DNA from: Candidatus Eiseniibacteriota bacterium
GTDB taxonomy: Bacteria > Eisenbacteria > RBG-16-71-46 > CAIMUX01 > VGJL01
Assembly (NCBI GenBank): GCA_041946735.1
Contig: JBHGAY010000002.1
Location: forward strand, 102,368-166,367
DNA: 64,000 bases
Direction of reading: 5' to 3'
This document shows positions 3,102 through 62,277 of the stretch, one piece after another; positions within the stretch are counted from its first letter, which is position 1; every line of letters begins with the position of its first letter. Both the position numbers and the translations under genes were made by a program. The notes below the pieces were generated by a model, which was given only the letters and a program-made list of their open reading frames with translations, was not told the origin of the DNA and ran no database searches.

Positions 3102-3324
3102 CGCATCCTCCCGTGCGGCCGGCCGGGCCGCCGCCCCTTGCGCGTTCGCGCCGTGCTCGCCCACACTGGCGGTTCGCGCCGTGCTCGCCCGCGCTGCCCG
3201 CACATGGGCGCCGGGCGGTCCAAGCCGCGCAGGGCGGCGTCCCCACCTCGTCCGAGCCTAGACGAGACGGGAGGGTCTGTCACCTCGGGCGGATTCCGGC
3301 GGCGAAGGAGGAGAACCGGCAACG

Positions 3325-4014: not shown

Positions 4015-4086
4015 CCCGGACGGGGAGGGGACGGAGTGATGGCGGTGGCGGAGTGACGGCGGTGAAGAAGTGACGAGGGGGAAGGA

Positions 4087-5241
4087 GTGACGGTGGATCC
4101 GCGGATCGGATGGACGAGCTGGGTCGAAGTGGAAGAGAAGGCGATCGTCGCGAATCTTGCGTCGTTCCGCCACCGCCTCGCGCCCGGCGCCGCGCTGATG
4201 GCGGTCGTGAAGAGCAACGGCTACGGCCACGGGATGGAAGAGGTCGCGCGGATCGCGGCGGCTCACGGAGCCGACGCGTTCGGCGTGCACACGGTCGCCG
4301 AGGCGGAGAGGCTCGGGCGGCTCGGACTCGGCAAGCCGGTCATCATCCTCGGATACACGGCGCGGGCGGAGGCGGAGCGACTCGTCGCGAGCGGCGCGGA
4401 GGCCACCGTCTACAACGTCGAGACGCTCGAGGCGCTGTCGGCGGCCGCGAGCGCGCGCGGCGCGGTCGTCCGCTGCCACGTCAAGGTCGAGACGGGCGTG
4501 CAGCGCCAGGGGATCTTCCTCGAGGATCTCGAGCCGTTCCTCGCGCGCCTCGCCTCGCTGCCGGGGCTCGCGCTCGCCGGAGTCTCCACGCACTTCGCCA
4601 ACATCGAGGACACGACCGACCACTCCTACGCGCGCCGCCAGCTCGCGATCTTCCGCGAAGCGGCTGAGCGCGTGCGTGCGCGCGCGCCCGAGGCGCTCCG
4701 TCACTGCGCCTGCTCGGCGGCGGTGCTGACGATGCGCGAGACGCTCTTCGACATGGTGCGCGTCGGGATCGGCCTCTACGGCATCTGGCCGTCGCGCGAG
4801 ACGCTGCTGTCGTGCCGGATGGCGGGAGAGGACGAGATGCCGCTGCGCCCCGCCCTGTCGTGGAAGGCGCGGCTCGCCCAGGTGAAGCTCGTGCCGGGGG
4901 GGGCGTACGTCGGGTACGGCTGCACCCACCGCACGACCCGGCCGACGCGGGTCGGCGTGATTCCGATCGGCTACGCGGACGGCTACGACCGCGGCCTTTC
5001 CGGGATCGCGCACGTGCTCGTGCGCGGCCGGCGCGCGCCGGTCCTCGGCCGCATCTGCATGAACCTCTTCATGGTCGACGTGACCGACATCGAGGGCGTC
5101 GGGCTCGAGGAGGAGGTGGTCCTGATCGGACGGCAGGACGGGGAGCAGGTGACCGCGGCCGACCTGGCCTCGCTGTGCAACACGATCGCCTACGAGATCG
5201 TGGCCCGCATCGGACCGCATCTGCCTCGGATCGTCGTGTAA
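4087..5241 (+). CDS. alr: alanine racemase
   Basis: The PLP-binding motif AVVKSNGYGHG is present and the length (~384 aa) fits. The GTG start at 4087 directly abuts the GAAGGA; the alternative GTG at 4093 has better spacing. Confidence 0.9.
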   Translation: MTVDPRIGWTSWVEVEEKAIVANLASFRHRLAPGAALMAVVKSNGYGHGMEEVARIAAAHGADAFGVHTVAEAERLGRLGLGKPVIILGYTARAEAERLVASGAEATVYNVETLEALSAAASARGAVVRCHVKVETGVQRQGIFLEDLEPFLARLASLPGLALAGVSTHFANIEDTTDHSYARRQLAIFREAAERVRARAPEALRHCACSAAVLTMRETLFDMVRVGIGLYGIWPSRETLLSCRMAGEDEMPLRPALSWKARLAQVKLVPGGAYVGYGCTHRTTRPTRVGVIPIGYADGYDRGLSGIAHVLVRGRRAPVLGRICMNLFMVDVTDIEGVGLEEEVVLIGRQDGEQVTAADLASLCNTIAYEIVARIGPHLPRIVV

Positions 5242-5788: not shown

Positions 5789-8431
5789 ATGTCTTGCGCG
5801 CGCCACGGTGCGATCGTCGCGTTCCCCGTCCTCGCCTTGCTGCTCCTCGTCTTCGCCGCTCTGGCCGATCCTCCCCCGATCTCGCAGGAAACAGGCCTCG
5901 ACCACGGCTTCCGGTACTCCTACGACGCGACCATGGCGATGGCGGCGTCGGCCGCCCTCAGCGACTCCTCCGTCCTCTTCTGCTGGAGCGAGGACTCCCA
6001 CGTGATGGCGATCCCGTTCGGCAGGAGCGGGGAATCGATTGGAGGCAACCGCACGGTCCTGTTCGAGGGATCCTATCCGGACCTCTCGTCGCCGGATGCG
6101 AGCGGCTGGAAGATCGCGGCGCGCGGCGGGGGCACTCTCCACGTCCGCAACCTCGATCCCGCCTCGCTCGCGACGACGATCGACCGCACGATCGGGACGA
6201 CGCCGGGCGCGGCGATCGAGAACCCGGAGATCGCGAAGATCGGCGACGCGCACGTCGTCGCCTGGCAGGAAGCGGCGGGCTCGACGTACGCGTTGCGTAT
6301 GCAGCGCTTCGACTCGCTCCTCGAGCCTCTCGATCCCGAGCCGATCGACCTCGGTCCGTGCAGCGAGCGGACCTGCGATCTCGCGTCGACGGACAGCGGC
6401 GGAATCCTGATCTACGTCGATGGTGCCGGGGAGGCGGCGGTTCGGCTCCTCGGAGCGGACGGCCTCCCAGCCGGCGATCCGCGCCCGCTCGACGCTACAG
6501 AGACGTACGATCCCGAAGTGGCGGCGTGCCCCTGCGGGGATGGATGGTTCGTCGCCTGGAGCCGCACGTCCGGGATCGGCGCCGCTTTCCTCGCGGCGGA
6601 CGGCTCCCTCCTGGCTCCGGGGATCCTCGGCCTCTCTCCGTACCCGGACTACGGCATGTCCGCATCCGAGGATGCGGAAGGCGGCGTGCTCCTCGCGTAT
6701 CGCGAGGACGGCTACGCCATCTGGGCGCAACGTCTGCGGGCGGGAGTGGGAGCGGTCGGAAACCCGCTCATCCTCTCCGGCGACGCGCCGTACCTGGCGT
6801 TCGGCTTTCCAATGGATCTCCGGGAAGTGGCGTGCGCGTGGACAGGCGAATGCTTCGCCGTCGCGTGGACCAGCTATCACGACCCGCCCGTCGGCGGCGA
6901 TCGTCGCGAGGGCGGTGGCGCGCGGGATCGCAACTGGTTCGGCGCCTTCCCGGTCTACTCCCAGTGGGTAGCGCCGGACGGCGGGTTGCTGTACGGCAAT
7001 CCGTTCCCGATCAACGTGCTGAGCTCGCCGGCCGAGGCGACCGTCGTTCGTCACCGGGACACGTCCCTCGCGATCGTACGGGACGGGATGCGGGGCGAAT
7101 GGCTGCACACGCTCGTCCTCGGCCCCGAGGGCGGCGTCATCGAGACCCCCGCGCGTTACCGCACCGCCGCGGAGCCGGACGACTGCGAGCTGTGGGATTG
7201 TGAAACGTGGAGTATCGATCAATTGGCCGCAGCTCGAGACGGGACGGGCGCGGCGGTCGGCTACCGGCTGCGCACTCACTTTTCGAACGAGTACTACGAG
7301 ATGGACGCGGCCTATCTCGTGATCGATCGCCTTGCGGCGGACGGCTCGTTCCTCGATCGCGCTTCGAGCTCCCTCTACATCGGAAACAGCGAGCTTACGT
7401 CCTTCGCGATCGTCCCGATCAACGAGACGCGCATCCTCGGGGCGTACACGGCCGACGATTGGGGCGGCCGCGCACCCGAGAGCGGCTACGTGCAGCTCCT
7501 CGACTGGAGCACCGGCGAGCCGATGGCGAGCTGGCGCCTTCATCGGGAGGACAACTTGACTCCGGTGACGGGAATCACCGCAGCGCCCCTTCCCGGCGGC
7601 ACGCGGTTCCTGATCGCCTGGAACGAGGGCGGCGCGCTGCGCGCGGGCGTTCTCGACCTCGACGATCCTCCGGACGAGATCGTCGGCGCCGTCGTGCCTC
7701 CATCTGCGCCTCTCGCCGGCCGCCCGCGGCTGATCGCCGGTGAGAGTCAGGTTCTCTGCGCGTATCCGGCCGAGCGGGCCGATGGGTCGGACATCGAGGC
7801 GGTACGCTTCGACGCGCAGGGCGAGCCGATCGACGCGACGCCGATCGTCCTCTGCGGGATCGCCGGATCCCAAGGGAACGTGGACGGCACGTGGGACGGG
7901 GACCGCTGGCTCGTCACCTGGTCGACCACGGGCTACGGCGTCCCCCACGAGCTGCGTGGCAACCGCGTCGATCCGGCCGGGGTCGCTCTCGATGGCGACG
8001 GCTTCGCGATTGCGCCGGACATCCGGGTCCCCGCGAGCGTCTCCTCGGACGGCGGCGGCCTCGTTTCGCTCGTCCACAGCGCGCGGCGCTTCCTCTGGAT
8101 CGACGATACGGAGGGATCGTCCGCCGTGGAGGAGCAGGCGACGGCTGCGCTCTCGCTCTCGGGCGTGCGCCTGGGCCCGAGCCCGACGACCGGGACGGTG
8201 CGCCTCGCCGCGCCGCTCGCCAGCGGCACGCGCGCGAAGGTCACGATCGTCGACGCGGGCGGGCGTGTCGTGGCGGTGCGCGCCCTCGACGGCTCGGGCG
8301 GCCTCGATGCACGCCTGCTCTGGGACGGCCGGCGTGACGACGGCACACGCGCTCCCGCCGGGCTGTACCTGGTCCGGATCGAGTCGCCGGAAGGCGCGGC
8401 GACGGCGCGGAAGATCTTGCTCGTCCGCTAA
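5789..8431 (+). CDS. secreted repeat (β-propeller-like) protein with a T9SS-type C-terminal sorting domain
   Basis: Signal peptide MSCARHGAIVAFPVLALLLLVFAALA. Recurring hhAW blade-like motifs (VVAWQEA, FVAWSRT, AVAWTSY, LIAWNEG, LVTWSTT). The C-terminus is ...LLWDGRRDDGTRAPAGLYLVRIESPEGAATARKILLVR. GGAGG RBS. Confidence 0.75.
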   Translation: MSCARHGAIVAFPVLALLLLVFAALADPPPISQETGLDHGFRYSYDATMAMAASAALSDSSVLFCWSEDSHVMAIPFGRSGESIGGNRTVLFEGSYPDLSSPDASGWKIAARGGGTLHVRNLDPASLATTIDRTIGTTPGAAIENPEIAKIGDAHVVAWQEAAGSTYALRMQRFDSLLEPLDPEPIDLGPCSERTCDLASTDSGGILIYVDGAGEAAVRLLGADGLPAGDPRPLDATETYDPEVAACPCGDGWFVAWSRTSGIGAAFLAADGSLLAPGILGLSPYPDYGMSASEDAEGGVLLAYREDGYAIWAQRLRAGVGAVGNPLILSGDAPYLAFGFPMDLREVACAWTGECFAVAWTSYHDPPVGGDRREGGGARDRNWFGAFPVYSQWVAPDGGLLYGNPFPINVLSSPAEATVVRHRDTSLAIVRDGMRGEWLHTLVLGPEGGVIETPARYRTAAEPDDCELWDCETWSIDQLAAARDGTGAAVGYRLRTHFSNEYYEMDAAYLVIDRLAADGSFLDRASSSLYIGNSELTSFAIVPINETRILGAYTADDWGGRAPESGYVQLLDWSTGEPMASWRLHREDNLTPVTGITAAPLPGGTRFLIAWNEGGALRAGVLDLDDPPDEIVGAVVPPSAPLAGRPRLIAGESQVLCAYPAERADGSDIEAVRFDAQGEPIDATPIVLCGIAGSQGNVDGTWDGDRWLVTWSTTGYGVPHELRGNRVDPAGVALDGDGFAIAPDIRVPASVSSDGGGLVSLVHSARRFLWIDDTEGSSAVEEQATAALSLSGVRLGPSPTTGTVRLAAPLASGTRAKVTIVDAGGRVVAVRALDGSGGLDARLLWDGRRDDGTRAPAGLYLVRIESPEGAATARKILLVR

Positions 8432-8950: not shown

Positions 8951-9876
8951 GTTTCCTCCGGGGACTCCGTCCCCTCGCTCGCGATCCCCTTCTTCTCGCG
9001 CGCTCCCCGCTTCTCGGCCTCGAGGAGCGCCGTGTACTTCATCCCGGCGTAGAGGGCGTCCATGACGGCGACGACGAGCCCCGTCCTGCCGTCACGGAAT
9101 CCTCCGCGGACCAGGTAGCCTTTCACGAAGCGCAGCGGCGGACGGAAGAGCAGATCGAGGGCCGTCGTTCTGCGGCCTTCCGCGCGCGCCTGTTCGGCCC
9201 ACAGCCGCGACCACTCGCCGATCTTCTCGAAGTGATGCGCGACGTCGCGATAGCTCTCGTGCCAAAGGATGCCGCGCAGGCGCGCGGTCGGGCCGTCCAC
9301 CCGCACCTGCTCGTGCACGGAACGGTCGTCGATGCGGGCGCGCTCGCGATCGAAAAGACGCAGCACCGAGTCGCTTCCCCAGTTTCCGTGACGGATCTCC
9401 CGGCCAAGATACCGGCTCCGCCGCCGCATCCAGAACCCCGCCTTCCCGCGCGGCTCGGCGGTGGCGGCCGCGCAGGCGGCGGCGAGGTCCGGATCGATCC
9501 GTTCGTCGGCATCGAGCCAGAGGATCCAGCGGTGACGCGCGCGCGCGATCGCGAAGCGCTTGGAGCCGGCGAACCCTTCCCACGGACGGACGATCACCTC
9601 GGTCGCGAGCGGCCGCGCAAGCTCGGCGGTGCGGTCGCGCGTCGTCTCGTCGACGACGACGATGCGCTCCGCCGCCCAGGCCGCGGAGCGGAGGCAGGCC
9701 TCGATCCGGTCCTCCTCGTCCTTCGCGACGACGACGACCGAGACCGGCGCGGGGCGCGCGGCGGAGGGATCGGGCGGCGCCGGCGTTGCCGGCGCCGTTG
9801 CCGGCGGCGCCGTTGCCGGTGCCGGCGGCCGCGGCCGCGGCCGCGGCGGCTCAGCGGCGTGCGCCACGGGGGCCAT
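8947..9876 (-). CDS. family 2 glycosyltransferase (LPS-core type)
   Basis: From the ATG at 9876 (MAPVAHAAEP...) the protein reads VSVVVVAKDEEDRIEACL...WLDADERIDPDL, a GT-A DxD fold. A Pro/Ala-rich N-terminal extension is present. Confidence 0.8.
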   Translation of the reverse strand: MAPVAHAAEPPRPRPRPPAPATAPPATAPATPAPPDPSAARPAPVSVVVVAKDEEDRIEACLRSAAWAAERIVVVDETTRDRTAELARPLATEVIVRPWEGFAGSKRFAIARARHRWILWLDADERIDPDLAAACAAATAEPRGKAGFWMRRRSRYLGREIRHGNWGSDSVLRLFDRERARIDDRSVHEQVRVDGPTARLRGILWHESYRDVAHHFEKIGEWSRLWAEQARAEGRRTTALDLLFRPPLRFVKGYLVRGGFRDGRTGLVVAVMDALYAGMKYTALLEAEKRGAREKKGIASEGTESPEET

Positions 9877-11044
9877 GCGACCTCCTCCTCTCCCGCTCCT
9901 CCGCGGCGGCCTCGACGATCTCGAGGGCGCGGCGCGACGTGCGCGCGATGTCGAAGCGCTCGCGAACCCGGCGGCGTCCCCGCTCGGCGAGCGAGCGAGC
10001 GCGCGCCGGCTCATCGAGGAGCGAGGCGATCGCGCCGGCCAGCGCGCCGGGATGCGCGGGCGGGACGAGCACACCCGCGTCGCCGACCGTCTCGGGAATC
10101 ACGTGAACCTCGGTCGCGACGAGCGGAACGCCGAGCGCCATGTACTCGAGCGCGGAGCGGCAGACCGCCTCGCTGCCGGTCGAGGCGATCACCGCGGCGT
10201 CGAGCCCCGCGGCGAGCGCGAGCGGATCGTCCACGGCCGGCAGGACGGCGAAGCGGTCCGCGATTCCCGCCTCTCGCGCCATCGTCTCCACCGCCTCCCG
10301 GCCGAGCTGCCCCTCCGGTCCTGCGCAGACGAACCGCAGCCTTTCGGCGAGCGCCCCGCGCGCCGGATCGAGCAACGACCGCGCCGCGGCGACGAGGTCG
10401 GCGTGCCCCTTGACCGGGCTGTAGCGCGCGAGCATCCCGGCCACGACGGCGCCCTCCGGCCACCCCCGCTCCTCGCGCAGGCGCCGGCGCGCGCACTCGC
10501 GATCGATCGTCCCACCGGTCTCCGGATCGATCCCCGCCGGGAGCACCTCGATCCGCTCCGCCGGGACGGCGAGACGCTCGAAATATCCGGGGATCATGAA
10601 GCGTCCGGACGGAAGGACGCGGTCGCTCCCCTCCACGTAGAGCCAGCGCGCCGCCGGGCCCGCGGCCGGCCGGCGTATGTCGGCGCGGAACCGGAGAAGC
10701 GGGCTCCTCGTCGCCCGCAGCGCGGCGGCGGCCGCGAAATGCCCGGAGCCGGTGTGCACGAAGACGGCAGCGAGGCGCCCCGACACGGCCGCTTCCCGGA
10801 GGTCGCGGAATGCGCGGAGCCACCGATCCGGGCGGCGCGACGCGAGATCCCGCCAGCGCGAGCCGTCCATTCCGGCGCTCGCCGCGCGGTCGGCGAGAGG
10901 GCTCGACGGAGGCGCGACGATGCGCGAGGCGAACCCATGGCGGCGCACCCCCTCGGCCAGGGAGAAGGCATGGTAGGCAAGGGCGCTCCACCATCGCACC
11001 CAGGCGAGATGCAAGACGTATCTCTCGGACTCCGGCTCTTCCAC
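9851..11044 (-). CDS. family 4 (GT1-type) glycosyltransferase
   Basis: The C-terminal domain reads ...SPVKGHADLV...EYMALGVPLVAT...AEAI... The N-terminus is YVLHLAWVRWW. The GTG at 11044 is a tentative start. It overlaps GT2 by 26 nt. Confidence 0.7.
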   Translation of the reverse strand: MEEPESERYVLHLAWVRWWSALAYHAFSLAEGVRRHGFASRIVAPPSSPLADRAASAGMDGSRWRDLASRRPDRWLRAFRDLREAAVSGRLAAVFVHTGSGHFAAAAALRATRSPLLRFRADIRRPAAGPAARWLYVEGSDRVLPSGRFMIPGYFERLAVPAERIEVLPAGIDPETGGTIDRECARRRLREERGWPEGAVVAGMLARYSPVKGHADLVAAARSLLDPARGALAERLRFVCAGPEGQLGREAVETMAREAGIADRFAVLPAVDDPLALAAGLDAAVIASTGSEAVCRSALEYMALGVPLVATEVHVIPETVGDAGVLVPPAHPGALAGAIASLLDEPARARSLAERGRRRVRERFDIARTSRRALEIVEAAAEERERRRSHGPRGARR

Positions 11045-11236
11045 TCGGACGGTGAGGCTAGCATGCGGGACGGAGGGCCTCAATCGGGGCGGCGACTCGA
11101 CCAGCGGCGCCGCCCTTCGCGACTCCGGCCCGCGCGGCCGGTTTCGCGTGGACTTCCCGTCGCCGGCGACCCTACAGTGGACCGCGATCCTGCCCGGCGT
11201 CCCGGGCGCTCGATGCTTGGCGATGAGGCTCTGCCG

Positions 11237-13264
11237 ATGCCGTTTCGAAGGACCGGATCCGTCTTCCTCCTGCTTCTCCTGCTGTGGGCCGCGACCGCCG
11301 CTTCCCCGGCATTTGGGCCGCCGGCTTCCGGGCCGCTCGCTTCCGAGCGGCTCGCCTCCGAGCGGCTCGCCTCGGTGCCGCTCCCGAAGGGACAGGCGTT
11401 CGTGGATCCGCCGGGAGGCGCGATCGGTCCGCTCCAGACGATCCGGATCGTTTCGCGATGGGACTCGGCGGGCTACGCGATCGCCCCCGACTTCTCGGAG
11501 CTGGAAGGCGGAGAAGCGGGCGACTTCGCCGTCGCGGACAGCGGCAACGGCTCCTACCTGATCGTGTATACGACCGGCCCGATGGCGGGGCTCTCGAGCG
11601 CCGCGGGCCTGACGATCCCGATCCAGGCGACGAACTCGATCCAGGGGAGCTTCACCGATCGCACCCTCCGCGCATGCCGCAATCTCGGCCGCCGGCCTGA
11701 GCACATCGCGACCGAGATCGTTCGCCCGCTCGAGGTCTACCATCCCGGCGACTCCCTCGTCGTCCGCACGCGCTGGCAGCAGGGCGACGCCTCGGGGATG
11801 ACCGTCACCGCGGATTACGCATCGCTCGCTAAGCCGGGCTCCGGCGTGCCGGCGCAGACCGTCGCGATCGTCGACACGCTCCTGCAGATCAAGGAGTACA
11901 CCTTCTCGTGGAAGATCCCGGGGGTCGGGCAGCTTCTCCAGGAGGGCAACGACCTGCCGCTCACCTTCGTCGGCCGCGATGCGCTGTGCAGCGAGGTGCG
12001 GGTCTCCCCGGTGACGATCGACCTCCGCCTGAGCGGCGCCCCCGCGCTCCTCTCGCACCGGGTCCTCGAGCCGGCCGGCCGCGGCGTTCGTGCCGGGGAC
12101 ACGCTGATCCTCTCCTGCGTCTGGGACCGGCCGGGCTACGACCTGCGGCCGGACTTCTCGGCGCTAGATGGCACGAGCGGCGACGGCAGCTTCGCGGTCG
12201 TCGACCTGGGAGGCGGCAGCTACGAGATCCGCCACACGGTCGCCCCGCTCGGCGATCTTCCCGACGCGCTCGTGCCGGTGCCGGTCACGGCGACCGATCC
12301 GTTCGGGGATCGTTTCACCGACAACTCGATCTCGATCAGCCGCAACCGGTCCACGCCGGGGCCGGTGCATCTGGGAACCGACACGCGGCGCTCGCGCCGC
12401 GTCTACAAGGGCAACGACTCGCTCGTCGTCGTCAGCCGCTGGACGCACCCGGCCGGCCTCGGCATCCAGATGCGCCCGCTGTTCACCGGGCTCGTTCCCA
12501 CGTTCGCCGACACCGAGGCGGTCGTGACGCGGCGCGGCGTCCCTTCCTCGGTCGACACCTTCTTCGTCGCCTACCGGCTCCCGCAGAAGGAATCGGGGCT
12601 CCTCGCTCCCGACGGAGAGCGGATCCGCATCGGCGTCGTCGCTCGCGACTCGCTCTGGACCGAGGTCGTCTACGACTCGATCCTCGTCGATCTCGACACG
12701 AAGGCGCCGCCGGCCTCGCCCACGCTCGACCCTTTGCCGGCGAGCACCGACGTAAGTCATATCCTGGTGACCGGCATCGCGCCGGAGGCCTACGCCGTCG
12801 CCTTCATCCGCAACGACGTGCTGCGCTTCCGCTCGCCGGTCGACAGCTTGACCGGACGGTTCGAGGCGGAGATGGATCTCGTTCCCGGCTCGAACAAGAT
12901 CACCGCTTGGGGGGAGGACTTCGCCGGCAACAAGACCCCGCTCGGGAACAACGTCTTCACGAACTACATCACCGGCAGGGTCACGAGCTACCCGACGCCG
13001 TTCCGCCCGGAGGACGAGATCTCCGTCGGCGATCCGGAGGGAATGCAAGAGGCGCTTGTGCAGATCTACAACCTGGAAGGGGACGTCGTTCGCGAGTTCC
13101 GCCAGGAGGGAGGAAGCTTCTTCGAGGCTCGTTTCGAATGGGACGGGAAGGACGTCGACGGGAGGATGGCGCAGCCGGGCTACTACCTGGTTCGCATCCA
13201 CCGGACGTCCACGAGCGGGAAGACGCGCAACGAGGTGAGCTCGATGCTCTTCCGGACCAACTGA
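11237..13264 (+). CDS. secreted Ig-like repeat surface protein with a T9SS-type C-terminal sorting domain
   Basis: Signal peptide MPFRRTGSVFLLLLLLWAATAASPA, then (LASER)x3. Three internal ~90-aa repeats (IRIVSRWDSAGYAIAPDFS..., TLILSCVWDRPGYDLRPDFS...). The C-terminus is ...EARFEWDGKDVDGRMAQPGYYLVRIHR...LFRTN. The upstream part of ORF 9560.. is antisense junk. Confidence 0.75.
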   Translation: MPFRRTGSVFLLLLLLWAATAASPAFGPPASGPLASERLASERLASVPLPKGQAFVDPPGGAIGPLQTIRIVSRWDSAGYAIAPDFSELEGGEAGDFAVADSGNGSYLIVYTTGPMAGLSSAAGLTIPIQATNSIQGSFTDRTLRACRNLGRRPEHIATEIVRPLEVYHPGDSLVVRTRWQQGDASGMTVTADYASLAKPGSGVPAQTVAIVDTLLQIKEYTFSWKIPGVGQLLQEGNDLPLTFVGRDALCSEVRVSPVTIDLRLSGAPALLSHRVLEPAGRGVRAGDTLILSCVWDRPGYDLRPDFSALDGTSGDGSFAVVDLGGGSYEIRHTVAPLGDLPDALVPVPVTATDPFGDRFTDNSISISRNRSTPGPVHLGTDTRRSRRVYKGNDSLVVVSRWTHPAGLGIQMRPLFTGLVPTFADTEAVVTRRGVPSSVDTFFVAYRLPQKESGLLAPDGERIRIGVVARDSLWTEVVYDSILVDLDTKAPPASPTLDPLPASTDVSHILVTGIAPEAYAVAFIRNDVLRFRSPVDSLTGRFEAEMDLVPGSNKITAWGEDFAGNKTPLGNNVFTNYITGRVTSYPTPFRPEDEISVGDPEGMQEALVQIYNLEGDVVREFRQEGGSFFEARFEWDGKDVDGRMAQPGYYLVRIHRTSTSGKTRNEVSSMLFRTN

Positions 13265-13294: not shown

Positions 13295-14314
13295 ATGATC
13301 GATCGCCGCGACCCGGCAGCCGCCCGCGGGCAGGCGCCCACGATCTCGACCTCCCTCTCTCGCCGCGTGCGCGGCCCGCTGTCGCTCGCTCTTCTCGCGG
13401 CCTCGCTCGTCGCGATTCTCGCCTGCGCGGCGCCCGCGCGCGCGCAGGTGGCCGGAGCGTTCCCGCATCTCGAGCCGTGGCCGGCCGCCCTCGCCCTCGG
13501 AGGCGCCGAGGAGGGGCTCGGGCGCGGAACGGAGGCGACGCTCGAGAATCCCGCCGGGATGCTGGCCGTCCCGGGCAAAGGTTTCGCCTTCTCGCACGCC
13601 TCGCTGTTCGAGGGCGGGCTCGTGCACCACCAGGCGGCGGCGATCTCCTGGGCGCGTTCGGCGAAGCGGATGCGCTGGCAAGGCTCGAACATCGTCACGG
13701 AGGCCGGCGAGGTGCGATCGGCGTGGGGCCTCGCGTTGACGAACCTCTCCGGCGATCTCCCGGGGAGCGACACCTACGGCGAGCTGCAAGTCGGCGTCGC
13801 CTACGCGCGCCGCCTTCCGCTCGCGATCGACGGCGGAATTCGCGTCCGCTTCCTGCAGGCGCGGAGCACCGTCGACGGCTCCGATGGAGGGGGCTACGCG
13901 CTCGACCTCGGCCTGTCCGGCGAGATCGCCGGCTTCCGCCTCGGAGGCGTCGCGCGCTCCTTCTTCTCCGACACGCGTTGGGACCGCTCGCTGGACGAGC
14001 CGCTCCCGGCCGGCTTCGACCTCGCGCTCGAGCGCCCGCTCGCCGGCGGCGTCTCGTCCCGCTTCGGCGCGACGATCCGCGAGAACGGGGAGCCGCAGCG
14101 GGTGACCGGCGGGGCGTCGTGGGACGTCCCGGGAATGCCGCTCGCCCTGCTCGGGGCCGCCTCGCTGCGCGATACGCGCGCCGAGAACCGCGTGGAGCCG
14201 TCGGCCGGCGCCACGTTCCGCGTCGGGATCTTCGCCGCCGCCTACGCGGTCCGCTTCGGTCCGGCCGGACTCGGCGAAATCCATCGCTTCAGCCTCCGCG
14301 TCGCAGTTCCCTGA
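13295..14314 (+). CDS. outer-membrane β-barrel, PorV/PorQ/PorP-like T9SS-associated family (putative)
   Basis: A signal peptide ends ...APARA|QVAG. The N-terminal motif is LALGGAEEGLGRGTEATLENPAGMLAVPG (GGA..G.G..A...NPAGL-type). Alternating β-strand pattern; C-terminal ...SLRVAVP. It sits 30 nt after the cargo gene. Confidence 0.6.
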   Translation: MIDRRDPAAARGQAPTISTSLSRRVRGPLSLALLAASLVAILACAAPARAQVAGAFPHLEPWPAALALGGAEEGLGRGTEATLENPAGMLAVPGKGFAFSHASLFEGGLVHHQAAAISWARSAKRMRWQGSNIVTEAGEVRSAWGLALTNLSGDLPGSDTYGELQVGVAYARRLPLAIDGGIRVRFLQARSTVDGSDGGGYALDLGLSGEIAGFRLGGVARSFFSDTRWDRSLDEPLPAGFDLALERPLAGGVSSRFGATIRENGEPQRVTGGASWDVPGMPLALLGAASLRDTRAENRVEPSAGATFRVGIFAAAYAVRFGPAGLGEIHRFSLRVAVP

Positions 14315-16678: not shown

Positions 16679-17083
16679 TCAGAGGATCTGGCGCTCCGCC
16701 CAGCGGCCGAGATACGGGATCCGGTACCAGCGTCCCTGATGGGCTTGCCAGAGCAGGTAGATCCAGAGGACGAACAATCCCACCCGGAAGACGTAGAGGA
16801 GAGTCCCGTAGAGGAATCCCACGAACGGGAAGAAGGTGAGCAGCCACAGCGCGAACCAGACGAGGATCGCGACCGCCGTGGCGGCGATCGACTGGAGGCA
16901 GTGGAACTGCACGAACCGGTCCTCGCGCTTCCAGACGAGAAGGACCACGCCCGAAAATCCGGCGAGGGCATAGGCGAGCGCTGCATGCAGCCGCGAGGAG
17001 GGCAGCAGATCGAGCGAGGCGCCTCGCCCGCGCTCCCCCCCTTCCAGAACGTTCAGAGGATCCGCTCCCCGATCCGGTCCCAT
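16679..17083 (-). CDS. small integral membrane protein (DUF4870-like)
   Basis: The motif WKREDRFVQFHCLQSIA (matching ..DPFVRFHAKQAL..) is present, with 3-4 TM helices and the C-terminus WIYLLWQAHQGRWYRIPYLG. It overlaps the lepB 3' end by 31 nt. Confidence 0.6.
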   Translation of the reverse strand: MGPDRGADPLNVLEGGERGRGASLDLLPSSRLHAALAYALAGFSGVVLLVWKREDRFVQFHCLQSIAATAVAILVWFALWLLTFFPFVGFLYGTLLYVFRVGLFVLWIYLLWQAHQGRWYRIPYLGRWAERQIL

Positions 17084-17754: not shown

Positions 17755-18393
17755 GACACCAAGTTAGCATGAACCGGACGAAGCAAGGGGGAGATCGTTC
17801 GGGACTGCTGCGCCGGCCACGGGGCGAACAGGAAGAGAGCCGCCGGAATCACTCCAGCGACTCTCTTCGGAGGTTCGGCCGCTTGCCCCAGGTTCGGTCT
17901 CCGGAACCCATCTAGCCACGCCGTGGGTCAACGATGAATTCCGGCGACCGAAGCATCTGCAGGTTCGCAGCCAGAATCGGGGATCGGGGGCCCGCCGGTC
18001 ACGGAAGCAACCTTCGGTTCCGGCATTCGCCGGCATCCGGATTGCGCTTCTGCCGGGGTTGGGAAACAGTCCGTACCCAGCGAGCGTCCCGATCTGCCGC
18101 TCCTATGAGCAGCCGGCATGCCAGAACGGGTTGAACTCCCCGAAGGTTGTTAACTCTATTGCGGATCAAGAGGATAGGAGGTCGTCGCCGCCGCTCGAGC
18201 GCGCGAAGGTCGAGGAGGGCTCGCGATGTCGGAGGCTGGCGCGGTTCCCGGCGGGCGACGCCGCGCGCCCTCCGCCTGTAAACGGTTGTCCTGACAAGGC
18301 TTGGTGGTGGTTCCACCGGTACCACCACTTCGGCACCGGTGGTCGCAACTTCACTCACTCCCTTTCAGGAAAGAGGAACGCGATTCGCGTGGC

Positions 18394-18423
18394 GCAAAGA
18401 AAAGCCCCCGGACGACCGGGGGC
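18394..18423 (-). terminator. intrinsic terminator of the barrel/lipoprotein operon
   Basis: A perfect hairpin (gcccccgg-acga-ccgggggc, 18404-18423) is followed on the minus strand by UUUUCUUUG (the plus-strand A-tract at 18394-18403). Confidence 0.65.
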
Positions 18424-18491
18424 TCGTTCGAGCGCGGATTGCCGGACCCGCGGGCGTCGCGAGCGGACCCGCGGCGACCCGGCGGCGCCTG

Positions 18492-19967
18492 TCAGAGGCT
18501 CAGACCGGCGGTCAGCCTCAGCATTGCCACGCGGCGGTCGACATCGACGACCGTGGACTGCGGGTTGATGAAGGGATCGCCGGGCGACTCGTAATAGAAC
18601 TTCCTCAGCTTGTAGTCGACGATCTCGTAGGCCACGTCATAGCGAAGATTGCCCGTCTCGAATCCGAGACCGAACGTGAAGGAGTCGGTGTCGATGTCGC
18701 CTCCCGCCCACTGGTCCGGATCCGGGCCGCCGTTGAGCTTCGCGACGGACAACGGTCCTCTGTGATATCCGATCCGCAGGGGAAGGTCGATTTGCTTGAA
18801 CCGCAGCCAACGTCCCTCGGCTCCAATGTGGAAGCTCGTGACGTCGCGAAGCGGAAGCGACGGGTTCGATTCCATCCCCAGGAAATCCTCCCGGTACTCG
18901 ATCTTCGTCTCCGACCAGTTCTGGCGGTTCACCTCGACCGCCACCCGCACCTGTGGGATAGGCTGGAACCAGCCGCCGATCGACAGGAGCGCCGGGACGT
19001 CCATGTCGTAGCCCGCGATCCTCCCGAAGATGCGCTGCTGCGGAGCGCCGGGAGCACTGAGAACGAGGTAGTCCAGCCGGCCGCCGGTCACCTCCACCGT
19101 GTAGCCGGGCGTGAACCGCACGCCGATCCCGCCGAAGTTCGGGCGCCGCGCCTGGATGCCCAGGTCGGCCGAGATGCCTCGATAGCGATAGCGCGTCTTC
19201 AGGTATCCGCCCGCCGAGTTCGCGCCTCCGGTCGCGACGATCGACTCGATCTTCGAGCTGAGGCGGCCGGTCAGGTAGTTCAAGTTCGCCCCGACCGACA
19301 CCACATCGGGGATCAACTGCGCGGCGGCGGAGGCGGAGGCCGCGTCGACGCCTCCCTCTTCCTTGCCATCGACCGCGAGAGTCACCGGGAAGGCGAGCCC
19401 TTCGCCGAAGACAAGATCCGAGACGATCTCCTCCGGATAGGACGTGTCGAGGTAGCGGCGGAAGCTGATCGCGCCGGCGACCGGACGCCCGAGCAGCTCG
19501 CCCGAGATCCCCGCGCCGAGCATGTTGCCCCGGAGGTTCGACTTCAGATTGACGTCGTACCGCTGCACGGCGAGCAGCGGCGAGTTGGGAATATTGAACG
19601 TGTCGGGATATCCCGAGGTCGAGCCCGAGGATCGGATCCAGCGAAGGTCGCCGGTCACGTTCGGGCGCTGGAGCCATCCCAGCCCGGCCGGGTTCCACGA
19701 GATCGCCTGCAGATCGGTGGCCTCGCCGACGTAGGCGCCACCCATTCCATGACCCACCGCGCTCGCGCGCACTCCGGTCATGTCGAGCGGCCGGAAGACG
19801 AGCGACGGCTGGAGCGTCTCCAGCGTGGCGATCCCGATCGTGCCGAGGTCGGTCTCGACCAACTGTGCGGAGACCGGCGAGGGCATGAGAGCCGCGGCGC
19901 AGGCGACGAGAGCGAGCGCGAAGATGGCCGGGGCTGCGAGACGACGAACGACACCCACTCCTCTCAT
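18492..19967 (-). CDS. outer-membrane β-barrel, PorV-like T9SS-associated family (putative)
   Basis: The start is the internal ATG at 19967, with the signal peptide MRGVGVVRRLAAPAIFALALVACAAA. The motif GMGGAYVGEATDLQAISWNPAGLGW is present and the C-terminus is ...LRLTAGLSL. ORF-track residues 1-150 are junk. Confidence 0.65.
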   Translation of the reverse strand: MRGVGVVRRLAAPAIFALALVACAAALMPSPVSAQLVETDLGTIGIATLETLQPSLVFRPLDMTGVRASAVGHGMGGAYVGEATDLQAISWNPAGLGWLQRPNVTGDLRWIRSSGSTSGYPDTFNIPNSPLLAVQRYDVNLKSNLRGNMLGAGISGELLGRPVAGAISFRRYLDTSYPEEIVSDLVFGEGLAFPVTLAVDGKEEGGVDAASASAAAQLIPDVVSVGANLNYLTGRLSSKIESIVATGGANSAGGYLKTRYRYRGISADLGIQARRPNFGGIGVRFTPGYTVEVTGGRLDYLVLSAPGAPQQRIFGRIAGYDMDVPALLSIGGWFQPIPQVRVAVEVNRQNWSETKIEYREDFLGMESNPSLPLRDVTSFHIGAEGRWLRFKQIDLPLRIGYHRGPLSVAKLNGGPDPDQWAGGDIDTDSFTFGLGFETGNLRYDVAYEIVDYKLRKFYYESPGDPFINPQSTVVDVDRRVAMLRLTAGLSL

Positions 19968-20431
19968 GACCTCTCCCCCAGGAGCAGCGTCACGATGACG
20001 GCCCCTGTCGTCCAGAAGCTCGCCGAGCGAGCGGTCCGCGCGATGTCGAAACGCACCTGGTCCACGTTGGTGATGTCGCTCTTCAGCAGCATCTTGTCGG
20101 GAGCGGGAGGCTCGAGCGAGACGCGGGCGTTCTCGAGACGCGAGACCTGCTTCTCGACCCCGTCCGCGTCGCGGATCGGGACGAGTCCGGTGAGGACGAT
20201 CTTCTGGTCGTCGACCTCCTTCACCTTGCCTTCCGAGACGACCCGGGGCTCGCGGAGCACGACGTTCTGGCCCGGAGCGATCCGGCCCTCGATCTGCTCT
20301 CCGGTCCTGAAGGTCAACACGACGCGCTGATGCTCGTCGTACGTCAGATCCTCGACCGGAACGCGCTTCGCGCAGCCGAGCGCAAGCAGGAAACATCCGA
20401 TCATGGCCAAGAGCCACGGGACTCGTTTCAT
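19964..20431 (-). CDS. small lipoprotein of unknown function
   Basis: MKRVPWLLAMIGCFLLALGCAKR carries a lipobox. The stop overlaps the downstream barrel's ATG (ATGA at 19964-19967). Confidence 0.55.
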   Translation of the reverse strand: MKRVPWLLAMIGCFLLALGCAKRVPVEDLTYDEHQRVVLTFRTGEQIEGRIAPGQNVVLREPRVVSEGKVKEVDDQKIVLTGLVPIRDADGVEKQVSRLENARVSLEPPAPDKMLLKSDITNVDQVRFDIARTARSASFWTTGAVIVTLLLGERS

Positions 20432-20602
20432 TGCGTCTCTCCGAGGTCGGCAGGTGACGTCCGGGAAACGAGGGGGGTCTGACGACCTTGCAGCATCCCC
20501 AACAGCCACGCCTCCAACCACACCTTGTGCCCGGATCCCCCGGCGGATCCGAAGCCGGTCATCCAACGCCGCGACTCTAGGAGAACGGGGGGCGAACGTC
20601 AA

Positions 20603-20626
20603 GGGGGAGGCCCGGCGGCCTCCCCC
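20603..20626 (-). terminator. GC hairpin downstream of glnA (weak or no U-tract)
   Basis: The hairpin is gggggaggcc-cggc-ggcctccccc, a 10-bp perfect stem, ~155 nt after the glnA stop. Confidence 0.35.
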
Positions 20627-20781
20627 GCAAGCTCAAATCCCGAAAGGCACCTACGGCGCTGCGGCTGCTTCCCTCCGGCTCCCCTGTCTGGCCTCCGGCC
20701 GCCGATCCTCCGGCCGCCGATCCGCGGCGCCTGGATCCGCAGCGCCTGCTGGATCCGCAGCGCCTGCTGGCCCCGCAGTCC

Positions 20782-41091: not shown

Positions 41092-43611
41092 CTATGGCAG
41101 CCGGACGATCCTCTCCGTCCTCGTGACGGCGCCCGCTGTCACCCGGCAGAAGTAGATCCCCGACGGGGCGCGGCGCCCTGCGTCATCCCGGCCGTCCCAG
41201 AGGACCTCATGCATTCCGGCGCCTTGCTCAGAACCCTCTCCTAGCGAGCGGACTCTCCTTCCCGAGAGATCGAGCAGATCGACCTGCACCGGCATCGGGC
41301 GGGCGATCTCGTAGTGGATCGACGTCGTCGCATGGAACGGGTTGGGGCCCGCGGGGAAGAGCTTCAGATCGTCGAACGGGCGGATCGCCGGCTCCCCGAC
41401 CGCGGTCTGGCCGGGAACGAAGAGCGTCACGTCGTCGATGTACCATCCCTCCCCCGTCGGCTCCTGCCCGCGCGTGCCGAACCGGAAACGGAAGGAGAGG
41501 ATCTGCCCCGCGTACGCCTCGAGAGGGACGACGACCGGCGTCCAGTCGAAGGATCCCGACCAGAGAGGGGTGCCGGTCACGAACGGGACGACCGTGAAGC
41601 GCCGCCAGACGTGGTCGTAGCCGCCTTCGATCGGTTGCAGCGTGAACCAGCTGGCGCCCGAGTCGGTCGAAGCCTCGAGGATGCCGCCGTCCCCGGCCGT
41701 CGAATCGTCGACCGCGTAGGCGTCCATCCAGTGCCAGAAGATCAGTCGAGACCCGTCGGGGACGCGGACGAGCGGCGATTGCAGGTAGGCGTGGATCCGG
41801 GTTCCGTACGGGCCGTCACCGGCGTCCCCGCACTTGTACGAGGTCTGCCCGCCGTCCGTATGGTTGCGCTGCTGGCTCAGGTGCCAAGCGTCGGTGTATC
41901 CGACGGTCAGGGAATCGTGCCTCCACTCGGCCGCGCTCGGGCCCTCGAACCCCTCCTCGATCGAGGCGACGAGGTCCGATGCGAGGACGACGGAGCGGTT
42001 GGCGTTCACGCGTCCCCATCCGAAGTACATGTCCCAGCCGGGGGAATCCTCGTTGGGCGGGCCGACCTGATCCTCGGCCCCCTCCTCGAGCATCGCGCGC
42101 ACCTGATGGGCGTCGAGCGAGGGCGCGGCGCTCCAGATCAAGGCGCAGATGCCGGCCGTGAGCGGTGTGGCCGACGAGGTGCCGTTGAACGTCGTCGTGT
42201 AGTTCGTGCCGCTGTAGCCGGCGACGCCGGTCCGGTCGGTCGTGGTGATCTTGACTCCCGGCGAGATCACGTCCAACTCGGCGCCGTAGTTGCTGCCCCA
42301 GAAGTTCTCGCCGTCGCAGGAGGTGTAGCTCTTGCGCTGGTCGCACGGGCTGCTCGCGCCGCACGCGATCGTCTCCGGATAGCGAGCGGGATAGTTGACG
42401 TCGTTCGCGTTGGAGTTGCCCGAAGCGAAGACCATGATGCAGTCGAGCGCGTCGGCGTTGATGACCGCGTCGTGCACCGCGGTGAAGTCCCCCGACGACA
42501 TCCGCCACGAGCAGGACATGACGAGCCCCGTGAACTCCGCGCGCCGGCTGGCCGCATAGTTGATCGCGTCCGCGCGATTCTGGTTCATTCCGGAGCCGAG
42601 ATCGACGCGCAGCGGCATGATCCGGCAATGCGGCGCGATGCCGCTGACGCCGAGGGAGTTGTCCTGGACGGCGGCGGCGATTCCCGAGCAGCACGTGCCG
42701 TGCGCGTCCTCGTCGTCGGGGCTGCCGTCGGGACCGTTCGCGAAGTCCCAGTCCTCGCCGTTGCGGGGGAGGAAGTTGTCGCGAAGGTCCTCATGGTTCA
42801 AGTCGGCGCCCGTGTCGATCACGGCGATGATGACGTTCGGGTCTCCCTTCGTGATGTCCCAGGCGAGCGGCGCCTCGACGTCCGCCCCTGGCGTTCCGCC
42901 TCCTTGTCCCGTGTTGTTCTCGGACCACTGCTGCGGGAAGAGCGGATCGTTCGGGATGCTCAGCGCATCGTCCCAGAGCAGATAGGACGGTTCGGCGAAC
43001 AGCACCTCCGGGTCGGCGTAGAGCCCGCGAACCGCCGCGAAGACGGACAGTCCCGGAGGAAGGACGATCGTGTAATAGCCGGGCGTCCAGTGATCCTCCA
43101 GGACCGAGGCGCCGAACGCATGGATCTTCTCGATGCACCGCTCCGGGGAGACGCCCGAGCGGTAGCGGACGGTCGCCTCTCCCTCGAGGTAGTACTTCGT
43201 GAACCCCTCGGCGTCGATCACGGCCGGGATCGCCGACGCGACGCCCACCTCGGCGCGGAGACGCGGCGCCAGGTCCGCCGGGGTCGTGGCGCGCGACACG
43301 CGATAGACGGCCGCGCGGGTCTCCGGATCGAGAGGATGGACGGGGACGAGGCCGTAGCGGTTCTCGACGATCTCGCGATCGAGACTGCTCGCCGCGCGGT
43401 CGTACCGGACGAGGATCTCCTCGGTCGATTGCCGCAGATCCCATGGCTTGCCGAAGCGTGTGTCGAACCAGCTCCCGTCGAAGGAGGCGGCGGGCGAGGC
43501 GGCCGCCACGCCGGTGAGCAGAGCAGCGACGAGCAAGGCGCGGCGTAGCGGGACGAGCGAAGACACGGAATTGGTGCGGCGGGAAGGCAGCAGGGCCCCT
43601 CGGTCGGACAT
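41092..43611 (-). CDS. subtilisin-family (S8) serine protease with a T9SS-type C-terminal sorting domain
   Basis: The catalytic triad lies in VIAVIDTGAD, HGTCCSGIAAA and GTSSATPLTAG. The C-terminus is ...VQVDLLDLSGRRVRSLGE...VLWDGRDDAGRRAPSGIYFCRVTAG...IVRLP. Confidence 0.85.
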   Translation of the reverse strand: MSDRGALLPSRRTNSVSSLVPLRRALLVAALLTGVAAASPAASFDGSWFDTRFGKPWDLRQSTEEILVRYDRAASSLDREIVENRYGLVPVHPLDPETRAAVYRVSRATTPADLAPRLRAEVGVASAIPAVIDAEGFTKYYLEGEATVRYRSGVSPERCIEKIHAFGASVLEDHWTPGYYTIVLPPGLSVFAAVRGLYADPEVLFAEPSYLLWDDALSIPNDPLFPQQWSENNTGQGGGTPGADVEAPLAWDITKGDPNVIIAVIDTGADLNHEDLRDNFLPRNGEDWDFANGPDGSPDDEDAHGTCCSGIAAAVQDNSLGVSGIAPHCRIMPLRVDLGSGMNQNRADAINYAASRRAEFTGLVMSCSWRMSSGDFTAVHDAVINADALDCIMVFASGNSNANDVNYPARYPETIACGASSPCDQRKSYTSCDGENFWGSNYGAELDVISPGVKITTTDRTGVAGYSGTNYTTTFNGTSSATPLTAGICALIWSAAPSLDAHQVRAMLEEGAEDQVGPPNEDSPGWDMYFGWGRVNANRSVVLASDLVASIEEGFEGPSAAEWRHDSLTVGYTDAWHLSQQRNHTDGGQTSYKCGDAGDGPYGTRIHAYLQSPLVRVPDGSRLIFWHWMDAYAVDDSTAGDGGILEASTDSGASWFTLQPIEGGYDHVWRRFTVVPFVTGTPLWSGSFDWTPVVVPLEAYAGQILSFRFRFGTRGQEPTGEGWYIDDVTLFVPGQTAVGEPAIRPFDDLKLFPAGPNPFHATTSIHYEIARPMPVQVDLLDLSGRRVRSLGEGSEQGAGMHEVLWDGRDDAGRRAPSGIYFCRVTAGAVTRTERIVRLP

Positions 43612-61401: not shown

Positions 61402-62277
61402 CTACCGCTCGGCCGAGCCCTCGAGCAGCGCCGTCGCTGCGGTGGCCGCCTCGCGGCCGCTCTCCTCGATCGACCGTCCCGCCCGCCGCCACCACGAATA
61501 GACCGCGAGGAACGTGTCGCCGAGTCCGACCGGCTCGCCGCCCAGCCGGCGAGGCGGAACGGCCGCGACCTCGACCGGCTGCCCGGCGCCGGCGGCGATG
61601 CGCGCCCCGTGGTCCCCGCGCGTCACGACGATCTCGCTCGCGATCTCGGCGAGCGGCGGAGCCCCTGGGGAGCCCGCCAGCGCGTCCACCTCCGACTCGT
61701 CGCCGCAGAGGACGGCGAGCGGCGGAAGCTGCGCGACGAGCGGGTACGCGGCAGGGACGACGACCGCGCCGGGATCGGCGGCGCGCACGAGCCCCTGGAT
61801 GCCGAGATGGAGCGGCCGCCCGCACTGTGTGAGCGCCGCCAGCAGCGACGCCGGCAGGTCGCGTGGCAAGAGCGGCCCGAGCAGCACCCATGCGGCCTCG
61901 CTCAGCGCCTGCGCGCCGATCCGGTCCGCGTCGACCGGGTCGGAGGCGGAGACGGCGAAGAGCCGGCGCTCGTTCGGGCGCGCGCGATCGAACTCGAGGC
62001 GGAAGCGGGTCGTTTCGCGCGAGGGATGTTCGACGACGCGCACGCGCGCGGGCAGCGCGCCGAGCAGGTCGCGATCGCGTGCGGCGAGCGGGGTGTGGAG
62101 GATCACGCGGGCGCCGAGCCGGTCGAGCGCGCGCGCCGCGTAGAGTCCCGCTCCTCCCGCGCGCACGAGCCCGCTCGGGAGCTCATCGCGGCAAAGCGGC
62201 GCGATCAGGAGGACCGGCCTCGGCGCGCGGCCCAACGAGGGAGCAGCGCGAAGCGGCCGCGGCGGGCGAGCGCTCAC
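61402..62277 (-). CDS. PfkB-family carbohydrate kinase (ribokinase-like)
   Basis: The C-terminal motif is PVGLGDTFLAVY (GAGD-T-F type). The GTG start at 62277 overlaps the peptidase stop (GTGA). ORF-track residues upstream are junk. Confidence 0.75.
   Translation of the reverse strand: MSARPPRPLRAAPSLGRAPRPVLLIAPLCRDELPSGLVRAGGAGLYAARALDRLGARVILHTPLAARDRDLLGALPARVRVVEHPSRETTRFRLEFDRARPNERRLFAVSASDPVDADRIGAQALSEAAWVLLGPLLPRDLPASLLAALTQCGRPLHLGIQGLVRAADPGAVVVPAAYPLVAQLPPLAVLCGDESEVDALAGSPGAPPLAEIASEIVVTRGDHGARIAAGAGQPVEVAAVPPRRLGGEPVGLGDTFLAVYSWWRRAGRSIEESGREAATAATALLEGSAER

Follow-up and report, generated by a model that had tools for sequence, protein, structure and literature searches.

A Conserved Lipoprotein–Barrel Operon of Eisenbacteria with Likeness to Docking-Type FadL-Fold Barrels

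Organization and Conservation of the Operon

We analyzed a 64,000-nucleotide (nt) stretch of Eisenbacterial DNA with a G+C content of 69% (from contig JBHGAY010000002.1), referred to here as the window, and focused on two neighboring genes of its minus strand: one for a 155-residue lipoprotein (19964..20431) and, downstream of it, one for a 491-residue outer-membrane barrel of the FadL superfamily (18492..19967). Together they form a real two-gene operon that is conserved across Eisenbacteria, an uncultured phylum. The upstream gene codes for a small lipoprotein whose family is an orphan one, and the downstream gene for a beta-barrel of the FadL fold that has an internal hatch domain and, ahead of the hatch motif, a long and conserved extension of its N-terminus. 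The nearest characterized relatives of the barrel clade are the BamG subunits of the Bacteroidota beta-barrel assembly machinery (the BAM complex), not PorV, the protein to which a first-pass annotation of this DNA had likened the barrel.

The barrel reading frame is present as first described and includes a signal peptide, and reading across the junction (GGG GAG AGG TCA TGA) confirmed that the barrel ATG overlaps the lipoprotein stop codon in an ATGA at 19964..19967 on the minus strand. The Shine-Dalgarno sequence of the barrel gene, GGAGAGG, sits inside the final lipoprotein codons (G-E-R), 5 nt before the barrel ATG. The overlap indicates translational coupling of the two co-encoded genes, in agreement with the earlier description of a bicistron with a small lipoprotein. 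The mechanically called open reading frame of the barrel extends upstream to a GTG at 20417; we consider ATG 19967 to be the true start based on the Eisenbacterial NCBI protein P0001 (equal length, 100% identity, annotated as “hypothetical protein”), the N-termini of homologues and the Shine-Dalgarno sequence. By codon position, the G+C content of both genes resembles that of coding sequence (0.65/0.48/0.85 in the barrel gene and 0.67/0.41/0.87 in the lipoprotein gene). Both proteins have clear homologues (37 of the barrel, 31 of the lipoprotein).

A scan placed a sigma-70-type promoter-like site, TTGACG-17 nt-TAGAGT, at 20574..20602 on the minus strand. The same hexamers at the same spacing were found between glnA and the lipoprotein gene in two related loci (L001 and L003; loci of relatives are numbered in this way throughout). 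In an alignment of five loci CCTTGAC and CCTAGAGTC were invariant, and both boxes and their spacing were kept despite an identity of just about 50% between the encoded proteins. From this conservation, the predicted promoter is inferred to drive the lipoprotein-barrel bicistron. In the approximately 140-nt 5' leader (20432..20573, minus strand), the alignment also revealed two blocks without variation, CCGCCGGGG and GTTGGAGG, as well as GGAGAG, the Shine-Dalgarno sequence of the lipoprotein gene. Beside the latter, RNAalifold suggested a long-range GGUUGG/CCGACC pairing, which had no covariation support among the five sequences. A G+C-rich hairpin after glnA, GGGGGAGGCC-GCCG-GGCCTCCCCC (20603..20626, minus strand), abuts the promoter -35 box and has a predicted RNA fold of -36.7 kcal/mol (z = -2.85). 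It probably ends the glnA transcript; since it has no U-tract, we only infer its role as a terminator. Short direct tandem repeats, CAGCAGGCGCTGCGGATC x2 and GGATCGGCGGCCGGAG x2, were also observed right after the glnA stop codon (20690..20780, minus strand); these were confined to the window, being absent from the four aligned relatives.

The clean intrinsic terminator reported after the barrel gene was likewise found, at 18392..18425 on the minus strand and 67 nt from the barrel stop codon. Its stem, GAGCCCCCGG-TCGT-CCGGGGGCTT (18425..18402, minus strand), has ten base pairs, eight of them G-C, around a 4-nt loop and is followed by the U-rich tail UUUUCUUUG, which starts TTCTTTG; the RNA fold is -29.8 kcal/mol (z = -3.1 relative to shuffles). 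A hairpin also follows the barrel gene in L001, and none was found immediately after it in L003. A match to the Guanidine-II riboswitch on the strand opposite the terminator, with E 0.05 and 21.8 bits where the threshold is 32, was dismissed as chance, since it is produced by the ACGA loop of the terminator hairpin.

In all loci examined (the window, L001-L006, L060/L061, L062, L063/L064 and L065) a lipoprotein homologue directly precedes the barrel gene, and this pairing holds at barrel identities as low as 25% and where the gene neighborhood differs. The two genes overlap by 4 nt in the window, L001, L002 and L004 and by 1 nt in L003, and are separated by 20-34 nt in L005, L062 and L063. The conserved neighbors of the pair are housekeeping genes (HAD, YjeF/Nnr, class II aldolase, glnA, lepB and speA), with no catabolic or fatty-acid genes in the conserved neighborhood, and no linkage of the pair to type IX secretion system (T9SS) genes was found. 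Based on the promoter, the leader, the two coupled genes, the terminator and the constant adjacency, we consider the pair to be an autonomous, obligately linked module. A relative from Gemmatimonas (L044) had no adjacent lipoprotein gene and was judged to be uninformative.

The Barrel Protein and Its Closest Relatives

The barrel protein starts with a signal peptide (...PSPVSAQ; residues 1-34) and an N-terminal extension (35-73), followed by the hatch motif (74-98) and then the barrel proper (approximately 103-490). The hatch motif, GMGGAYVGEATDLQAISWNPAGLGW, which includes NPAG, is encoded at 19674..19748 of the window, and its residues G76, G77, P93, A94 and G95 were invariant in 31 sequences. 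The 38-residue segment between the cleavage site and the hatch motif has the consensus DLGTxGLxxLxxxxPSxVFRPLDMxGVRAGA in the core family, in whose alignment R59, P60 and D62 were nearly invariant; distant relatives align to the family profile only from about position 65 on. An AlphaFold2 model built from the 31-sequence alignment had a mean predicted local distance difference test score (pLDDT) of 87.7 and a predicted template-modeling (TM) score of 0.82, and the extension (residues 35-73) was modeled with pLDDT values of 76-90. The sequence L-V-A-C at residues 20-23 was considered as a second lipobox and rejected, as its cysteine is not conserved in homologues.

Assignment of the barrel to a family was based on profile hidden Markov models with curated cut-offs of 90 bits for the NCBIfam model PorV_fam (NF033709), 250 bits for BamG (NF053685) and a gathering score of 29.7 for Pfam Toluene_X (PF03349). 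The window barrel scored 43.1 bits with PorV_fam (E 3.8e-11) and had no match to the PorV equivalog NF033710. By comparison, a 327-residue Eisenbacterial PorV (L051, L053 and L056) that served as a positive control scored 243.5 bits with PorV_fam and 178.6 bits with the PorV equivalog. Since a true PorV occurs in the phylum and is easily recognized, the 491-residue barrel is not PorV, and its designation as PorV-like was correct at the level of the superfamily and wrong at that of the family. The “even clearer motif” on which that designation drew is certainly present. However, it is not a PorV signature, but the hatch motif known from FadL/TodX, with NPA at its core, which is common to FadL, TodX, BamG and PorV. 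The G-x-GG...NPAG motif is therefore a signature of the superfamily and not of a family, which is a warning against calling PorV from the motif. With Toluene_X the window barrel scored 20.9 against 29.7 and only the N-terminal motif was aligned (Toluene_X positions 21-65); PF03349 was precomputed on eight of the 37 barrel homologues.

All 31 family members matched both the BamG model (best E 5e-18) and PorV_fam (best E 4e-11). Among the 82 nearest outside relatives, 75 matched BamG at E<=1e-10, the best of them with an E of 3e-26, and 54 matched PorV_fam at that level, neither cut-off being reached. These matches place the barrel in a large, unnamed branch within the FadL superfamily, one that lies somewhat closer to BamG than to PorV. 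The size of the branch was apparent in an exhaustive profile search, with 5751 relatives at E<=1e-3, including 1074 at E<=1e-10.

Comparisons with proteins of solved structure gave the same ranking. The family profile matched the PDB sequences of BtBamG (E 5.7e-13; PDB 9HIV chain F, whose 431 residues match the length given for BtBamG), PgBamG (1.6e-9) and TbuX (1e-6), and also CymD and TodX, and PorV was not among its PDB matches even at E<=10. The best Foldseek TM-scores of the barrel model, 0.70, were those for BamG chains, compared with 0.61 for FadL. In the structural comparison, the figures that came after those of BamG were 31.0 for E. coli FadL, 29.3 for a P. aeruginosa FadL homologue, 28.7 for TodX and 26.2 for PorV (269 residues aligned), followed by a gap to CymA at 20.7.

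The Small Lipoprotein

The 155-residue protein begins with MKRVPWLLAMIGCFLLALGC followed by AKRVP and is predicted to be a bacterial lipoprotein that is lipidated at Cys20, giving a mature length of 136 residues. After the signal peptide and Cys20 come a small domain that is all beta (residues 21-128) and, toward the C-terminus, a hydrophobic helix (approximately 139-152), and the protein ends in GERS. Cys20 was invariant in alignments, in the context G-C-[AT]-K-R-V, and 29 of the 31 family members had [GAS]-C-[AT]-K-R-V near the end of the signal peptide ([GAS]-C-[ATS]-[KRQ]-[RKQ] at residues 11-36). Every one of the 31 C-termini comprised a basic cluster, a hydrophobic segment of 13-17 residues starting with F-W (mean Kyte-Doolittle hydropathy of 1.6-2.4 over 15 residues) and two to four polar residues. 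We considered that the invariant GERS might be a by-product of the embedded Shine-Dalgarno sequence and rejected this; it is kept in the loci where the two genes are 20-34 nt apart (L005, L062 and L063), which argues for a constraint at the protein level.

The family is closed, with 31 proteins of 134-221 residues, all unnamed, and nothing between E 2e-29 and the threshold of 0.01, and it had no match in Pfam or NCBIfam. Its residues after the cysteine are basic, not acidic, and a periplasm-facing location is therefore more likely.

Proposed Role and Alternative Explanations

We consider that the best-supported reading, which is made by analogy and which we hold tentatively as falling somewhat short of probable, is that of a docking barrel with a cognate lipoprotein, comparable to BamG-BamH. 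The locus would build a two-protein outer-membrane module in which the barrel would be neither a T9SS cargo shuttle nor a simple diffusion channel. The family-invariant parts of the lipoprotein, its lipid-anchored N-terminal Cys-x-Lys-Arg-Val segment and its short C-terminal hydrophobic helix, would probably touch the membrane and the barrel, either at its wall or at its lateral opening. A role of the complex in the biogenesis or maintenance of the outer membrane is suggested by the occurrence of the pair at one conserved locus, amid housekeeping genes, in every Eisenbacterium sampled. The analogy to BamG-BamH is based on the fold, the ranking of BamG first among relatives, the N-terminal extension, the adjacent lipoprotein with its conserved segment after the cysteine, and the housekeeping context of the locus. 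In Bacteroidota, BamG attaches to the back of BamA and holds BamH by its conserved, lipidated N-terminus; what separates BamG from the FadL transporters, in which the free N-terminus takes part in gating, is a conserved extension of the N-terminus through the lateral opening (PMC12578637, PMC12611786).

A more specific proposal is that the pair could be the Eisenbacterial, BAM-associated counterpart of BamG-BamH, with BamH replaced by an unrelated mini-lipoprotein that would engage the barrel via its lipidated N-terminal tail and C-terminal membrane helix; we regard this as unlikely. If it were true, FadL-type “adaptor barrels” would bring lineage-specific lipoproteins to BAM in further phyla than those surveyed to date, which would extend the idea of an “augmented BAM” and make the lipoprotein partner exchangeable. 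If the pair is not BAM-associated, it would still be a core envelope module of Eisenbacteria, whose barrel is now annotated as a “hypothetical protein”.

Several observations weigh against a BamG-BamH-like role. The window barrel scored 34.8 bits with the BamG model, against a cut-off of 250, and since all model scores were far under the curated cut-offs, orthology to BamG is not established. No bamA or bamD gene is adjacent to the pair. The clade contains more than 1000 relatives at E<=1e-10 and has tandem copies in some genomes, which suggests diverse roles. The lipoprotein had no match to BamH or to any other solved PDB chain apart from a marginal one to PilP; in contrast to BamH, it is roughly a quarter of the size, without sequence or structural similarity, and has a C-terminal hydrophobic helix that is not described for BamH. 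In addition, the basic residues after its cysteine are unlike the acidic surface-export signal of Bacteroidota.

FadL-fold barrels have long been viewed as channels for lipids and aromatic compounds, and the barrel might be an uptake channel of that type, importing hydrophobic molecules (fatty acids, aromatics or lipids) by lateral diffusion through an opening in its wall, with the lipoprotein as a periplasmic or membrane acceptor. The conserved hatch motif with NPA, the significant scores of TbuX, CymD and TodX in the family profile search and the precomputed Toluene_X matches of eight of the 37 homologues are all consistent with such a channel. However, the N-terminus of the window barrel reaches approximately 27 residues beyond that of FadL, an extension of the kind that marks the non-transporter BamG, the barrel itself is under the Pfam gathering score, and catabolic and fatty-acid genes are absent from the conserved neighborhood. 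FadL-family transporters are not known to have a lipoprotein as an obligate partner. Such a partner is also not described for them in the 2025 reports on BAM (PMC12578637, PMC12611786), and on balance we find an uptake channel rather unlikely. A different role for the small protein would be that of a trans-envelope or inner-membrane partner, held by its C-terminal helix and/or lipid anchor and touching the barrel on its periplasmic face with a PilP-like beta domain, in the way that PilP touches the secretin PilQ. A profile match to PilP, marginal at E 0.023 and 0.078, spans 78 residues of the lipoprotein. The hydropathy of its C-terminal segment would also suit this arrangement, as would the lysine at position +3, which can be an inner-membrane retention signal in some bacteria. 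Nevertheless, a hydrophobic stretch of just 13-17 residues, a basic cluster on the periplasmic side, which is wrong for a stop-transfer anchor, and a 110-residue domain that is too short to span the periplasm make an inner-membrane partner quite improbable.

The first-pass annotation had suggested an expanded family of PorV-like cargo shuttles or outer-membrane anchors. As one of a set of T9SS shuttles, the barrel would bind the C-terminal domains of cargo proteins and carry the cargo from the translocon to the attachment complex. The barrel shares a superfamily with PorV and matches PorV_fam weakly, the organism has many proteins with FlgD_ig/T9SS-type C-terminal domains, four of them in the window, and a PorV-like gene lies beside the gene of a PorU-like protein 4 kb away. 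Against these points, the PorV_fam score is less than half of the cut-off and contrasts with the 243.5 bits of the true Eisenbacterial PorV, PorV is missing from the PDB profile matches, and the barrel is 100-160 residues longer than the Eisenbacterial PorV (327 residues) and 6h3i_F (345 residues). The operon also has its own promoter and terminator and no T9SS gene linkage, its conserved neighbors being housekeeping genes, and the publications consulted describe no dedicated lipoprotein partner for PorV. Judged from these comparisons, the PorV-type shuttle is largely refuted at the family level, and we regard such a role for this barrel as highly improbable.

Other Features of the Window and of Related Loci

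The second PorV-like gene does exist (13295..14314, plus strand; 339 residues). However, the close paralogy implied by “two PorV-like paralogs in 10 kb” was not supported: the two barrels had no significant pairwise similarity (BLASTP E = 0.36) and the second gene, which scored just 31 bits with PorV_fam, is in a separate, convergent unit beyond speA and lepB, an arrangement that is syntenic in L001 and L062. Since the two proteins are dissimilar and their arrangement is shared with those loci, the two barrels within 10 kb reflect conserved synteny of distant superfamily members and not a local expansion of shuttles. The second gene directly follows that of a 1234-residue protein (9560..13264, plus strand), which has a FlgD_ig/T9SS-type C-terminal domain and a C-terminal region that weakly resembles PorU, and the two may be a divergent porU-porV-like pair. 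The 1234-residue protein is one of the four window proteins that end in FlgD_ig/Por_Secre_tail-like domains; the others are an 880-residue protein (5789..8431, plus strand), an S8 subtilase (41092..43611, minus strand) and an M28 peptidase (62274..63986, minus strand). This suggests that the window Eisenbacterium has a sizeable T9SS-type secretome. An unusual architecture was observed in L045 (approximately 2990-4257), where a PorV-family barrel from Eisenbacteria, which scored 106.9 bits with PorV_fam, has a FlgD_ig-like domain fused to its C-terminus.

Approximately 280 nt past the barrel terminator, on the same (minus) strand, is a candidate structured RNA of about 250-300 nt (approximately 17811..18123). 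The element was nearly invariant at the nucleotide level in eight Eisenbacterial loci and was always downstream of the barrel gene; in the relatives it was located at L001 9790-10119, L002 5133-5390, L003 11796-12119, L004 3317-3612, L005 11885-12162, L024 11599-11861 and L062 7090-7409. In five aligned loci it opens with a sigma-54-type box, TGGCAY-N5-NTGC. The window copy, TGGCATGCCGGCTGCT (18108-18123), is the sole match in the 64 kb, where 0.17 would be expected. Terminator-like hairpins follow the element in several loci. Its consensus has two domains and 61 pairs, with 90.9% of cells paired, and 18 of these pairs had compensatory changes on both sides, compared with 7.6 +/- 2.0 in shuffles (0/500 reaching this number) and 1-7 in slid controls. 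A 32-codon open reading frame was called inside the L001 element, but the conservation of the nucleotide sequence itself speaks for an RNA. No match was found in Rfam 15, and a metagenome scan with the core of the element gave 14 matches, all attributable to chance. The element looks like an undescribed sigma-54-dependent small RNA, judged from these features, and shared synteny may be all that ties it to the barrel operon. In L001 and L062 a gene for a MamF/MmsF-like small membrane protein comes directly after the barrel gene and the RNA element; in the window (16679..16999, minus strand) lepB separates it from them.

The most divergent subfamily of the pair (L065 8689-13619, L060 1-4797 and L006 8001-11314) is found in a four-gene cluster, in the order EB_dh (DOMON-like, PF09459), lipoprotein, barrel and a 537-residue (approximately 540-residue) protein of unknown function.

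Comparison with Known Systems

Like the window barrel, BamG (PDB 9HIV/9HJ3 chain F, 9HJM chain F and 9N2D chain B) has a FadL-type fold with a hatch domain and a conserved N-terminal extension before the hatch motif. The two differ in that identity is approximately 15%, the window barrel is about 60-90 residues longer, and its extension beyond FadL is about 27 residues compared with about 12 in BamG. In both cases the gene adjoins that of a lipoprotein partner. For BamG, this was seen in other phyla of the FCB superphylum, among the entries available to us of Supplementary Table 1 of PMC12611786, which place bamG and bamH next to one another in Ignavibacterium, Salinibacter, Fibrobacter, Gemmatimonas and Caldithrix. 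BamG2-BamH2 is a putative operon in B. thetaiotaomicron, and Eisenbacteria are not mentioned in the BAM survey or its supplements (PMC12611786). BamH, like the window lipoprotein, is encoded beside a FadL-family barrel, and its N-terminus is wedged into BamG; in BamH and the window lipoprotein alike the segment after the cysteine is highly conserved. However, the partner of BamG is the large, surface-exposed BamH, whereas that of the window barrel is the unrelated 155-residue lipoprotein.

PorV (PDB 6H3I chain F) is a FadL-superfamily barrel that shares the G-x-GG...NPAG hatch motif with the window barrel, and the window organism resembles those with PorV in having T9SS-type cargo. In contrast to PorV, the window barrel is without T9SS gene linkage, is much larger and has a dedicated lipoprotein partner. 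The FadL, TodX and TbuX channels likewise have a hatch domain with NPA inside a FadL-type barrel. The window barrel differs from them in its long conserved N-terminal extension, with 38 residues before the motif as opposed to the short free N-terminus of FadL and TodX, in its obligate lipoprotein partner and in the absence of a catabolic context.

The next-nearest relatives are barrels of about 400 residues from Zixibacteria, KSB1, Ignavibacteria and UBP2, which have approximately 25% identity and score 55-76 bits with the BamG model. The Zixibacteria-type barrels are also directly preceded by the gene of a periplasmic or lipoprotein-type partner, but they have no N-terminal extension and their partner is unrelated to the Eisenbacterial lipoprotein. 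That partner has 410-460 residues with TPR, coiled-coil, CsgG/LpoB-like and FlgT_C-like domains; such pairs were observed in L008, L009, L011, L013, L014 and L016 (Zixibacteria, Ignavibacteria, UBP2 and Bacteroidota metagenome-assembled genomes), and L007 and L010 each have two tandem copies of a related barrel. Kinship of the small lipoprotein with the FlgT_C-like domain of the partner was considered and rejected (hhalign probability 0.4%).

PorV and, since 2025, BamG are cases in which the FadL fold has been reused as a docking platform in the FCB superphylum, to which we take Eisenbacteria to belong. By analogy with these two, the Eisenbacterial locus shows what would be a third, unnamed docking-type lineage of the FadL fold, with an obligate partner lipoprotein of a new family.

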